Shown one piece after another: positions 53,701-59,700 of a stretch of 64,000 nt of DNA; position 1 is the first letter of the stretch; each line of letters begins with the position of its first letter. Source of the stretch: Octopus vulgaris. Its lineage: Eukaryota. The stretch is taken from assembly GCA_951406725.2 (NCBI GenBank), contig OX597818.1, positions 11,780,001-11,844,000 on the forward strand, read 5' to 3'. The notes below the pieces were generated by a model. The model searched no databases. It was not told where the DNA came from and saw only the letters and a program-made list of their open reading frames with translations. A program made the translations under genes and the position numbers.

Positions 53701-56700
53701 TGACCCACATATCTAACAATGTGACCCTCATATATGTACTAATATTATCAATGTATCAATATGTTTAAATAGCTATTAATTGAGCAAAGTAACACTATCC
53801 TACCCACAAACATAATCCACAATTCTAGTAACTTACATACCTACTAATATTATTGCCACATCTACTAATATGAGCAATGTAACAATGCATTAATGTAACC
53901 CACACAAATTCAATAATATAATTAGAAAATAGCAGTTTAATTAAAAACCCTTAGAATTTTTATTACAAAACATATTACTGTTACAACTGATAAAATTTCA
54001 TAAATTTCAATACAACATACAATATTTAGTATTCTTCTCAAATAATGTACAAAAGAGTTTGTAATGCATAGGATTAAATACCTTGCAAAATTTAGTTATC
54101 TTCTTTTATGCTCTGAGTTCAAATCCCACCCAATTGATTCTGTCTTACATCCCAACCACTTTTCTTTAAAAATAAATATGACTTAACAGACAAGGAAGAG
54201 ACAGCATTTTCTTTAATTTTTCTCTCTCTAACAGAACACCTTACTGATTACATACATAACGTTCTTACTTCAACCATTGTCCCTTCTTATTGCATGTTCC
54301 AGCAGTGCATTCATTCATCTCTTTATGCAGTGCATCCACGAGTGACAAAGGAGAAGGGGAAATAAAGAAATGATGAAACAGCAATCATATGATCATTTCT
54401 CAGACCAGAAATGTGATTCAAATGCTTGTAATAGAGAGAACTTTGCTGAACTCAATAAAGAGCCAACTGGTGGCATTAAACTGGGCAACAGATTAAAGCT
54501 ATTATTTAACGACCATTTCAAACAACCTGATGTGCTTTTATGTTGAATGTCAAGAACAAAGCTTGAGTGAAACCTGACCCATGATAAAAGACACTTGTTC
54601 AAGGAACTGTGTGATCATACCAGGTCACTTGACAGGGCCATGTAAATACCAATATTTCTCACACACACACGTGTGTGTGAATGAATGAATGAATGGCAAA
54701 ATGGTTAAAAATTTCACTTTGTAATCATCAGCATGCAAAAGGATTTTTTTTTTTTTGTAATGAAGGAGCATCAATGTGGTTGGTCAATCTGTTAGAAATA
54801 GCAACCAAATCTTCTCAGATCACATCTTACTGTCTTAAATAAGAACCACATTTATTAGGTAAAGCAGTCCTAAATAGGTTTAAAGAGAGGGGACAGTCAT
54901 GACTATAATGCTTTGATCATAGGTCTGCTTCATTAAGGTCAAACCACAGCAACACAAAGGATGAAATGCAAAGTCAACCTTAACAAGCTGTCATAGTTAA
55001 TAATATTGATTTCTTTGCTTATTATAACACTTGTACTGCTGCAGTCCAAGAATTCAATCTAACAAGTTTACATTTAGCACAAAGTTCCAAATCTGTGTAG
55101 GGTAGTCAACTGAATCAGCCACCAGTTAATGACTGGTATTTATTTTACTGAGTCCCAAAGAGCTGAAATGCAAAGTTAAACTTCGTTTAATTTGAACTAA
55201 GAACATAAATAAGCCTAGATCTGTAAGGCACTCAACTGTTTTTCCCTACTGTTACTCTTAAATGACACATTTATGATTTCCTATATAGATACAAGAGCAG
55301 AAATTTATGTAGGGAAGGACCAATGGATTTTTTTTTATCAGTCGCAATACTTGACTGGTACTTTGTTCTTGACTTTGGCAAGATCTGAACTCAGAACCCC
55401 AAAACACAAGGTATATTACCTGTCACTCTACCAATTTTGTTACCACTATCCCATGAAAAAAATAAAGGCACTTTATTAACATCATCTTTCTATCTTAGTA
55501 CAATATTGGGGTTATTTTATTATTATTAATAATACAACACTGATTGTGAGTTATTTAATTTTTTCAAAAAAATGTTTTTTTAATATGATTTTATGGTAAA
55601 AATCATCAAGTTAAAATTAATTATCAATTATATAATATAACATCGTGACAAAAATATCACAGACAGAAACATCAGTAACTTTCACCTTCAATATACAAAC
55701 ATTTTATAAAAGCTTTGAATGAAAAAAAAATGATAAATAAGCTAAAGAAGAATTCCTAAACCCAAATCTGACCAGTGGGGTAAATGAGAAACAGTTTTTT
55801 TTTCTCTCTTAAAAGGTGTTGGAATACTAGAAAGCTTTAAAAAATAAAATGTAGCTGATGGGATTAAGGACTCCAGTTTGTTCAAAAGGAGATTAGGGGG
55901 AGAGCAAAGGGTAGGCAACTTTAATCACCATAGCAAAAGAAAATGGTGTAAGCCCATTACCAGAGGTATATCATGAACTCAGCGCTTGGTTATGCTGTAC
56001 TGACCATCTTACCTTTGATATATTTTCTAAAGGAATCCCACCTTTGATAAGAAGGCCAATACTGCTGCCTACCCCAAGACTTACGACAATGGCTGTGGGT
56101 GTGGCAAGACCAAGACCACATGGACAAGCCACTGTTAAAACTGTGAGTGAGTATTGGACAGCAGCTGTAAATACCACACGAAGATAATGCCAAGTACCAT
56201 AAGCCTGAAGATGAATTAAGAAACATACATGTTTAATATTCTTTTCAGTCTTAATGCAATATATTTGCCTGAGAAGAGGTACTAGCAAGTATCAAAGACC
56301 AGATAATTGTTGGTATTTCAGTTTAATCCACCTGTAAACAACCAAGAGATAGATATTAGTTCATCAAAAACTCTACAAATAGTCTTACACAGATATCCAG
56401 AAGCTGTACAAAAGACTTGTTTATGTACATCATTATTAGCAGCAGCAGATATCCAACAGTTATATTCTGATAACAGCTATGGTATACAAATGGGGCTACA
56501 ATATCTGTAACATTCACACTTCTTTAATTACTTCAAGATAAATTTGATATCAGAGTTATATTTCATTGTTGTAGGAAGCAATGAACAGACAAATCTTTTG
56601 ATACTGTGATACTAATGTTAAATCCTCCTTCAAGTAAAATCAATGCAACAAGTAGCAAAAGAACCTGTTGTTTTCCATTGTTGCCATACAACTTCAGATT

Positions 56701-59700
56701 GTGAGTATGCAGAATCCCCATCCTGATCTAAATAAGAATTTTGAACCAAACGATAGCATAATTTTAAAAGGCTATCACATCAGTAAAGTTGTCCAAATAT
56801 TCGCATATAGTAAAAATGTGTTGACCATCTGATATCTATGACCTATGATATATGTAGTTTATGGACCTATATGTATACATAGATACACATACAAAGACAA
56901 TGTTTGTACCTTGAAAGAAAAGTAGATGTATCTGCAAGTGAAAAAATTCAGTGTCAACAAAGCAAAGAAACTTGTCAATATAAAAACAACACAAAGAACA
57001 TCTCGCAAGAGAGGCATTAACAAAGAACACTTTTCTGTAAACCTTGCTGACTGTTCCCTAGATCTTACCTTATGTGTCAGTTCCAGAGGTTCACCGCCTT
57101 TGATGAGAATGCCATTAGTGGCACCAACCCCTGTACCGACCATTACAGCAGTGGGTGTGGCCAAACCCAGAGCACAGGGGCATGCAATACTTAAAACAGT
57201 AATTGCATACTGGAAAGCATATTGGAATATCAATTCATGTTTTGTCAAAGGACCATCTTCCTGTGAAGCAGCAAACAGTGTATGGTAACATCAATTAGAT
57301 TTGTTTACATAACATCAATGAATCAAACAAATGAAGGAATACAATAAATCAATACTTAGATTTACATCTATTAACCCTTTAGATTTTAAACCGGTCATAT
57401 CCAGCCCAAATAGTATACCTGTTTTATATCCAGACCAGACAGACCTGATATCTCATATGTACCCTATAATGTCATTCTAAAAATAGAAAATACACAATAA
57501 CATCATCAAAAGCTTAAAGCTATGAGATAATGAATGATAAATTTAAAACAAAGTGAATAAACAAGCAGTTATTCACTTTGTAATCTGAGTGCTAATGGGT
57601 TAAATATCACAGGTCATTGGTTTTCAAATGTAGTCTTATGTAAGTTCCACATCATAACTGTTTTTATGGTGGAAAGAAAACACAGAACTAACAATGGTAA
57701 CAACAATAATTAAAATGATGATAATGCTAGTGAAAAGAAAGGTAATGATAGTAATGCTAATGATGGCAATTACCCTACCTATCCTGGAATTTTCTGTCAA
57801 TAACTATCCAAGATCCAATTCTAAACAGGCTCAATGAAGACATACTTTTAAATGGTATCATAGAATGGTCTCAGTATACTGGCTGGCTTGGTTTGATTTA
57901 AGCAGACCCTATATATGTGTGTATATTATATATATATATATATATATATATAATCAATATAGGGTGGCAAAAAAAAAATTTTGTAGAATTTTTTGCCACC
58001 AGCGGCCTAGTGGGAAAAAATTAAATAGTCAAAGACCATTTTTAAGTTCAACATCAACAATCAAGGAACGGCCATAATAGGCCATTCACCCACTAGAAAT
58101 AACAGCCAAAGCTTCAACCGCAAATAAAAATTAATTCCGTAAACCAGGAGAAAATTTAAAAAACATTTACCCTGTATATATTGTGCTTTTGTGATATTTT
58201 TGGCTTATTCAAAAATATCACAAAACCCAGAGACAACCAACTCATAAAAGCATGAGAAAAATGAGTTAAAATATAAGTTCCACTTCTGATCTTGGTTGGA
58301 GGTTGGATCTTGGTTCACTAAACTATACCAGTGAGTAGGTAATTTGATACTAAATACCAATTTTTCTCTCTCTCTCTTCTCTTTCACTCTTTCAGCTCAC
58401 ATCAGTTGTAAATATGGCTCAGAAAGGCATGCTTACCAAACTTATTTGAGGACTATAAAAAAAAACAACCATATTACAGTAAAAGGCAATGTGACTGTGA
58501 TGTCAAAGACACAAGATCAAATGCAGATGCAATCATCAAAACCATTACACAAGATACACTACTTTTCCCACATTAGTTTTCCTAAACATTAATATCCCCT
58601 AATTCTTGATTATAAAATGTCCATGAACCCTTGCTTATAAGAAGAAAGACATTGAGTAGTCAAACCAGTCTCCTCAACAATTTATATGTAAATAAAGGTG
58701 ATGAAATAAAATGGATGAATAATAAACAAGAACAGCAGTATACATAAATACATAAAAAAGAAAAAATAATATCATTTATAAGAAGAGAAATATCTAATTA
58801 TAACAAATAGTTTGGTTATTAAGACTTTTGTAAAAAAAAAAAATTCAAGTTTAAAAAAAAATATAAAGTATTATACCTTAAAACTTTTGTCAATCAACTT
58901 AATATCATGATAGCCAATGATAATCCAAGTGATAAGAGTGAGCACAGAGACAAACACAACCATTGGAACAAAATAACCAGCAATCTTATCTGCTAACTGT
59001 TGGATTGGAGCCTGAAAATAAAAGTGAGATTAATTTCAGTTTGGGATGATACATATTCAGAAATGGCTGGTGTTAATAAAAGGTATCCATTTATAGAAAC
59101 CAAACCATTGATAAGAGATTCTGTTCCAGCTACAGAGTCATGTCATTAGTGAGAGTGAAAACACCTAGATTACTGCATTGCATCTCACACACACACAAAA
59201 AGACAAAGCAATAACAGTATAACAGCCCTAAATCACACTGAAATATAAGCATATCTAGTGTGATGGGATATATTAAGATATTTTCCAAAGTGCTCTATTG
59301 GTTTTAACTTCATGCCAGAGATCATCTTAAGCAGAACTGACTGGGATTACAGAAAATCAAGATGACCTTACTAAAATATAAGATTTTGCCAGAGAAGAAC
59401 ATCAGAAAGAATAATACACAAGTTCTGGGTCTTCTATTCATAAATGATTTGAAGTTGTTTTAAGGTGGTAGAAAACCAGTTAAATGACATGTCATCAACA
59501 TCAGAGAGAAAGAGAAGGAAGAAACAGAAAAGAGAGGAAACAGGTGAGAGACATGAAAGGAGAAAGTGGAAAGAAATAGATAGACAGGGAGAGAAAACAG
59601 AAGAGAGGAAAGAGAGAAAGAGAAACAAAAAAAACATTCCACATACTTTTGAAACTTGAGCCTCCTCTACAAGTTTAACAATTTGTGACAGTGTGGTATC

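Follow-up and report, generated by a model that had tools for sequence, protein, structure and literature searches.

The 64,000-nucleotide (nt) window studied here (Octopus vulgaris, GenBank assembly GCA_951406725.2, contig OX597818.1, positions 11,780,001 to 11,844,000) carries the 3' part of a gene for the copper pump ATP7, in which the exon encoding the CPC motif is present as two tandem copies. Exon A (57069..57260, minus strand) is the standard ATP7 CPC exon, containing the luminal loop, the sixth transmembrane helix (TM6, also named M4) with CPC and the stalk leading to the phosphorylation domain, and corresponds to exon 13 of human ATP7B. Exon B (56013..56204, minus strand) is a diverged tandem duplicate of A with intact frame and splice sites. 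It is held by selection and has counterparts in other organisms, and exon A is the dominant form. We consider it probable that B is used in place of A, either as a minor form or in particular tissues, and gives rise to a working, retuned second pump; its splicing, its exclusivity with respect to A and its effect on function are inferences within that reading.

Both exons measure 192 nt and, translated on the minus strand, are stop-free, yielding 64 amino acids (aa) each in phase 0-0. Exon A is bounded by ttcacag/GAA and CATAAG/GTAAGATCT and exon B by tcttcag/GCT and TCAAAG/GTAAGATGG (the slash marks the exon border), i.e., a CAG acceptor and an AAG/GTAAGAT donor in both cases. They are identical at 34/64 aa and 120/192 nt without any indel; matches at codon positions 1, 2, and 3 number 40, 47, and 33 of 64, and 18 of the 34 common residues are encoded by different codons. 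This resemblance is far beyond chance. On the upstream side, the preceding exon closes in phase 0 at 58877; downstream, the exon bearing the DKTGT phosphorylation motif opens in phase 0 at 52651. The sequence-only reading, which started this study, had described two tandem homologous 192-nt exons in phase 0-0 at these positions, with CAG acceptors and AAG/GTAAGAT donors, either of which joins the TM5 exon in frame to the DKTGT exon, and had counted by hand 34/64 shared aa without indels or stops. Translation, inspection of the boundaries and the flanking phases agree with this description at every point compared, the count included. Searched against the 2.8-Gb genome, the B peptide gave exactly two matches, B itself (E 4e-35) and A (E 2e-15). 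The pair shows adjacency with homology, equal length and phase with canonical sites, and coding selection on both members, which are among the features by which mutually exclusive homologous exons are recognized.

The evidence for selection on B comes from several comparisons. Exon B retains 22 of the 28 positions that are at least 95% conserved across 240 family segments, a set gathered by similarity to A and B and thus biased toward animals. Neutral mutation of A to an equal nucleotide distance kept 12.6 +/- 2.2 of these conserved positions, and a value of 22 was reached by only 1 of the 32,570 trials (out of 200,000) that were stop-free and were used. The ratio of nonsynonymous to synonymous substitution (dN/dS) between A and B was 0.29-0.50 by four methods. 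P0003 is an unspliced reading frame that comes either from a close relative or from a second individual. It shows 0/64 residue changes in the exon, against 12/66 when the intron on either side is translated in frame (Fisher p 2.8e-4), so the constraint on B is recent. The differences between B and the more distant B-type P0004 sit at family-variable positions (p 2.6e-6). Judged by these comparisons, B is under purifying selection at the protein level. The first 36 nt past the B donor (55977..56012, minus strand) also have an unchanged translation in P0003, with 12/54 codons differing in the rest of the flanks; this may possibly be a splicing control element, or possibly chance.

P0004, grouped with P0123 and P0124 (nine contigs), contains a B-type exon of 64 residues, flanked by Gln on one side and Val-Arg on the other, the residues expected from CAG/ and /GTAAG. 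Identity to B amounts to 43/64 positions, and 11 residues are common to both B-types against A. In a 26-row tree, of which the bootstrap is not fully settled and which does not place the point of duplication, B and P0004 form one clade on a long stem with support of 100/99. A decapodiform source would fit the distance of P0004, although this is a guess. B evolves faster than A: the two B-types share 43/64 residues, the octopus and decapodiform versions of A 59/64. The claim that B is an old copy under selection rather than a dead duplicate is thus upheld by the simulation, the P0003 comparison and the tree, and B-type exons also occur in other organisms (P0003 and P0004). The reading frame past the donor is not conserved on read-through, which indicates that B is an internal exon; an alternative last exon was rejected on the same ground. 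P0003 and the P0004 group were the only B-types among the best 120 of 355 matches, and P0003 and P0004 were also the only ones in the best 150 of 12,299 obtained from 1.84 billion representatives; in such clustered protein searches a full-length B isoform would be concealed within an A-type cluster. A homologue search with the two-row B alignment in the range of 35-112 aa gave 0/10 candidates, a metagenome scan yielded six loci without a B-type among them, and the ESM Atlas search returned unnamed clusters only and was uninformative. Like B, an unrelated animal-like ATP7 exon (L004:1607-1756) carries Ile in IKGG.PLE, but it is otherwise A-type.

Among the core exons of the gene, the duplication is confined to this one. 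The 3' part of the single ATP7 gene occupies 35534..64000 of the window (minus strand), with the 5' exons outside it, to about G000:C5:11908759. Its constitutive exons comprise the TM5/M3 exon (58877..59011, minus strand, ending in phase 0 and supported by spliced transcripts and tblastn), the DKTGT exon (52469..52651, minus strand, starting in phase 0, with one match in the genome), the TM7 exon with the YN motif (39688..39816, minus strand) and the TM8 exon with the MxxS motif (38195..38300, minus strand), the ends of the latter two being approximate. The DNA surrounding exon B is single-copy. With the full 1439-aa ATP7 (P0262) as query, a tblastn search of the window and of the 100 kb that precede the gene part within it on the upstream side found a second copy for the CPC exon only; the expected cross-matches among metal-binding domains were set aside, and a short, very diverged extra exon could escape such a search. 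For the core exons the earlier observation that no other exon is duplicated therefore holds. TGES, DKTGT, SEHP, YN, and MxxS are all found in the shared exons of P0262. Exon A is 100% identical to ATP7 of Octopus bimaculoides, 97% to that of Argonauta, and 92% (59/64) to decapodiform ATP7. Human ATP7B 965-1017 aligns with B residues 9-61, and exon A aligns to the same human stretch. For this region, Wilson-disease variants of human ATP7B exon 13 are listed in a review (PMC11536366; see also PMC4229086), and the CPC motif is described as sitting in M4 along the copper path (PMC8896786). At the other end of the gene, the first coding exon lies ~42.6 kb from the next (G000:C5:11866020-11908652), and the listed Octopus ATP7 isoforms (1373, 1428, 1439, and 1440 aa) vary in their N-terminal start only.

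If B replaced A, the pump would keep its metal ligands and change much of what surrounds them. CPC, LGLATPT, and LIKGG.PLE are retained in B and likewise in P0004. The luminal loop is replaced in both B-types, and changes common to the two occur at the human-equivalent positions 969, 975, 980, 986, 995, 996, 999, 1007, 1013, 1018, and 1019. Residues 39-57, which run from the CPC site to the phosphorylation domain, have a hydropathy of 1.77 in B and 1.66 in P0004, both above all of the 172 distinct family segments (mean 0.77, sd 0.22, maximum 1.47) and level with the real helices of ATP7. On the copper-pump profile TIGR01511, A scores 73.7 bits and the B-types 56.3 and 63.6; on the cadmium profile TIGR01512 the scores are 42.5 for A, and 41.7 and 43.4 for the B-types. 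Identity as a P1B-2 Zn/Cd pump was rejected, and a switch to zinc or cadmium is not supported, as both B-types still fit the copper profile best. The B isoform would have the sequence marks of a P1B-1 pump, with CPC in TM6/M4 and YN, MxxS, DKTGT, TGES, and SEHP in the shared exons. A kinetic or regulatory change is likelier than a change of metal, given the Cu(I)-type CPC that is retained in B and the YN and MxxS of the shared exons; B would most likely affect coupling, release or trafficking, with the transported metal unchanged.

Several observations weigh against the use of B as an alternative exon. We mapped 4 of the 24 listed runs (X1, X3, X5, and X18) on positions 48001-63999; three of them (X1, X3, and X5) are sets of contigs presumed to derive from RNA, and X18 consists of raw RNA reads, of which about 6% was read. 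X1, X3, and X5 each contain one unbroken spliced contig leading from the TM5 exon through A to the DKTGT exon, at depths of 70, 87, and 52. In X18 the A junctions carry 20 and 6 raw reads and the B bin holds about 4 reads' worth of bases, which limits B to roughly 4 against 20 for A. Among the 15 splice joints listed for the four runs (273 more fall outside this listing) there is no B joint of any kind. The depth in the B bin of X3 and X5 is fully explained by unspliced contigs, which run over the B donor at depth 4.9 or over the acceptor at 2.2. This equals the intron background, the depth elsewhere in the introns of X3 being 4-7. In X1 the B bin amounts to 283 depth-bases, too few for a full-length exon if contigs have a depth of at least 2. 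Also, each of the 27 cephalopod ATP7 proteins listed with coverage of this region uses A, the annotation of this genome included (of the protein cluster P0155, 15 of 20 members were listed). P0004 is known as a protein sequence only, and its position beside an A exon is assumed. RNA pairing that could enforce exclusion was not found: for each of the 10 flank pairs, at least one of the 20 shuffles paired equally well or better. Finally, the equivalents of the near-invariant M996 and T999 become V and L in B, residues seen there in 0/240 family segments.

Exon A is therefore the main form. Splicing to both flanking exons is seen for A, of which the junctions occur in all four runs; for B, no junction is among the joints listed, and the listed proteins use A. 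Routine inclusion of A and B together, named beforehand as an outcome that would speak against exclusivity, finds no A-to-B joint among the 15 listed, but there is no B joint of any kind either. These data constitute weak evidence for the absence of B, because contigs drop rare variants, the tissues of the runs are unspecified and clustering hides B isoforms. A word search of the runs for exon B listed no run recorded as RNA; eight rows guessed to be RNA contain 0.25-0.75 of 16 words and six rows of unknown kind 0.56-1.00, and this blank was not used as evidence.

The changes in the stalk raise the question whether B, if spliced in place of A, would yield a working pump at all. The product may be a poor pump, because nearly invariant family residues are altered, and it could be an ATP7 that is inactive, lacks coupling or is soon degraded, with the effect of reducing copper export or of serving as a regulator that binds copper. 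The equivalents of M996, T999, N1005, K/E1013, A1018, and H1019 are replaced in both B-types by residues that are absent or rare in the 240 segments, the drop from 73.7 to 56.3 and 63.6 bits on TIGR01511 points in the same direction, and B of Octopus also alters the equivalent of A1003, a Wilson-disease position. However, both B-types fully retain CPC, LGLATPT, and LIKGG.PLE, 10 of 16 exon-13 missense positions carry the human residue in B by hand count, against 11 of 16 in A, and a merely dead product would not require such conservation. We consider a non-working product unlikely.

The way in which A and B are combined bears on a second alternative, in which B is a cassette included after A. 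The intron between them (56205..57068, minus strand) measures 864 nt and has no residual homology to the other flanks, all splice sites are GT-AG, and the length of A plus B is divisible by 3. PMC5740500 sets the criterion for steric exclusion at a donor-to-branch-point distance below 50 bp; with an intron of 864 nt, GT-AG sites throughout and an in-frame A+B product, exclusion by steric hindrance, by U12 sites or by frameshift and nonsense-mediated decay does not apply. The A and B flanks have no homology to each other (87 and 150 of 200 shuffles were as good) and Rfam gave 0 matches. The best docking/selector pair, between the DNA downstream of B and the end of the next intron, was rejected, since it was equalled by 1 of 20 shuffles, is one of 10 pairs and overlaps a repeat. 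The intron after B contains a 205-nt near-perfect hairpin (53298-53502; -83.4 kcal/mol, z -13), which has at least 80 genome matches and so represents an inverted-repeat element resembling a miniature inverted-repeat transposable element (MITE), not a locus-specific structure. The remaining means of exclusion would be protein regulators, or the disposal of a mis-threaded A+B product. With regard to the latter, the argument that A+B inclusion flips the membrane topology is reasonable but weaker than first stated, as the second half of B is hydrophobic enough to form a second helix. In a cassette, the hydrophobic halves could then form a helical hairpin, giving two extra helices and a second, inverted CPC with the downstream domains still cytosolic, a possibility favored by the hydropathy of residues 39-57, which exceeds that of all 172 family segments in both B-types, by the in-frame length of A+B and by an intron long enough to permit the join. 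Yet both B lineages keep the exact length and the small glycines of a single M4 helix-and-stalk, no A-to-B joint occurs among those listed, and duplicated transmembrane exons are argued to be unlikely cassettes (PMC5740500). A cassette of this kind seems quite improbable to us.

The lack of spliced B in all four runs and in the 27 listed proteins, together with the faster evolution of B (43/64 between the B-types against 59/64 for A), could also be read as a silent pseudoexon, formerly functional or kept for some reason at the RNA level, with no present role in a protein. It is difficult to reconcile this with the P0003 exon, unchanged against 12/66 changes in its flanks, or with B-type differences that avoid protein-conserved positions, and neither an Rfam match nor significant pairing was obtained that would point to a role as RNA; there appears to be little chance that B is silent. 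It is hardly credible that B is an assembly artefact, belongs to another ATP7 gene or was inserted from a foreign source: nothing was found in favor of this, B differs from A at 72/192 nt, independent contigs match B and its flanks without mismatches, there is one such DKTGT exon in the genome, and B has animal exon boundaries and groups with animal sequences.

The reading of B as a mutually exclusive exon would imply the following course. The CPC exon was tandemly duplicated, and B diverged fast and was then held by selection as coding sequence. B would be spliced instead of A between the TM5 and DKTGT exons, either in a small share of the transcripts or only in a particular tissue, at a particular stage or under a particular metal condition. 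Its product would be a Cu(I) pump of unchanged length and ligands, in which the luminal loop is new and the helix joining CPC to the phosphorylation domain more hydrophobic, and the effect would most likely concern coupling, turnover, copper release or trafficking. Joint inclusion of A and B would be prevented by splicing regulators or by protein quality control.

Some further observations concern other parts of the material. Four ATP7 models of Artemia franciscana (P0140, P0285, P0286, and P0288) have a 234-residue internal repeat with two identical CPC regions, which probably arose in the assembly or by a duplication of very recent date. Open frames at 2650-4044, 9070-9843, 14226-14963, and 18238-18783 of the window resemble, by eye, remnants of reverse transcriptases or transposases amid simple repeats. 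Short interspersed repeats in the ATP7 introns (51820-51955, 52809-53076, and 60909-61014) reach very high depth and dominate the read mapping.

Tandem duplicated exon substitutions form a known class. The cases treated in PMC9741552, PMC8373072, and PMC5740500 likewise have adjacent homologous exons of equal length and phase that keep key residues, including in an ion transporter, the difference being that for B exclusive splicing is what we infer. According to PMC9741552, tissue specificity applies to three quarters of such substitutions in humans, with ion transporters as a recurring group. Neither ATP7A nor ATP7B figures in the human catalogue supplement of PMC8373072, where the P-type ATPase rows among the matches listed (2 of 20) are ATP2B C-terminal events, or in the main text of PMC5740500; in PMC5387049, ATP7A figures with disease splice mutations only. 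Among the open-access papers listed by literature searches, none describes a duplication of the CPC exon of ATP7, in accordance with the sequence-only reading, which knew of no such report. The arrangement is thus of a known class, of which the CPC exon of ATP7 is a new instance, conserved and missed by the listed annotations.

Copper transport by the Menkes and Wilson pumps centers on the CPC helix, which hardly varies between bacteria and humans. A selected alternative to it on an otherwise identical protein would offer a natural controlled experiment on the coupling of the metal site to phosphorylation and on release, and could show how cephalopods, with their copper-based blood, apportion the handling of copper when they have a single pump gene; if B is never spliced, its conservation itself needs explaining. 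Among metal pumps, the P1B-2 Zn/Cd pumps (ZntA, CadA) resemble B in that it keeps its TIGR01512 score while losing copper-profile score, and differ in that B scores higher on the copper profile, keeps LGLATP and is combined with constitutive copper-type motifs in TM7 and TM8. The alpha subunit of the Drosophila Na,K-ATPase, likewise a P-type pump, has duplicated, mutually exclusive exon 6 cassettes that encode part of an ion-binding membrane segment, in a different pump subfamily and a different helix from that of exon B. The human P1B-1 Cu(I)-ATPases ATP7A and ATP7B have the same exon and the same CPC in M4 as the octopus. Vertebrates possess these two pumps as two whole genes, whereas the octopus genome has one gene with two versions of the gate exon, of which B has stalk residues outside the family range. 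It is possible, if somewhat doubtful, that cephalopods make two functionally distinct copper pumps from one ATP7 gene by swapping this gate exon, with the B form serving a special compartment or tissue (e.g., for haemocyanin loading or metal storage) or other soft metals. If true, such a swap would be the exon-level counterpart of the vertebrate split into ATP7A and ATP7B.

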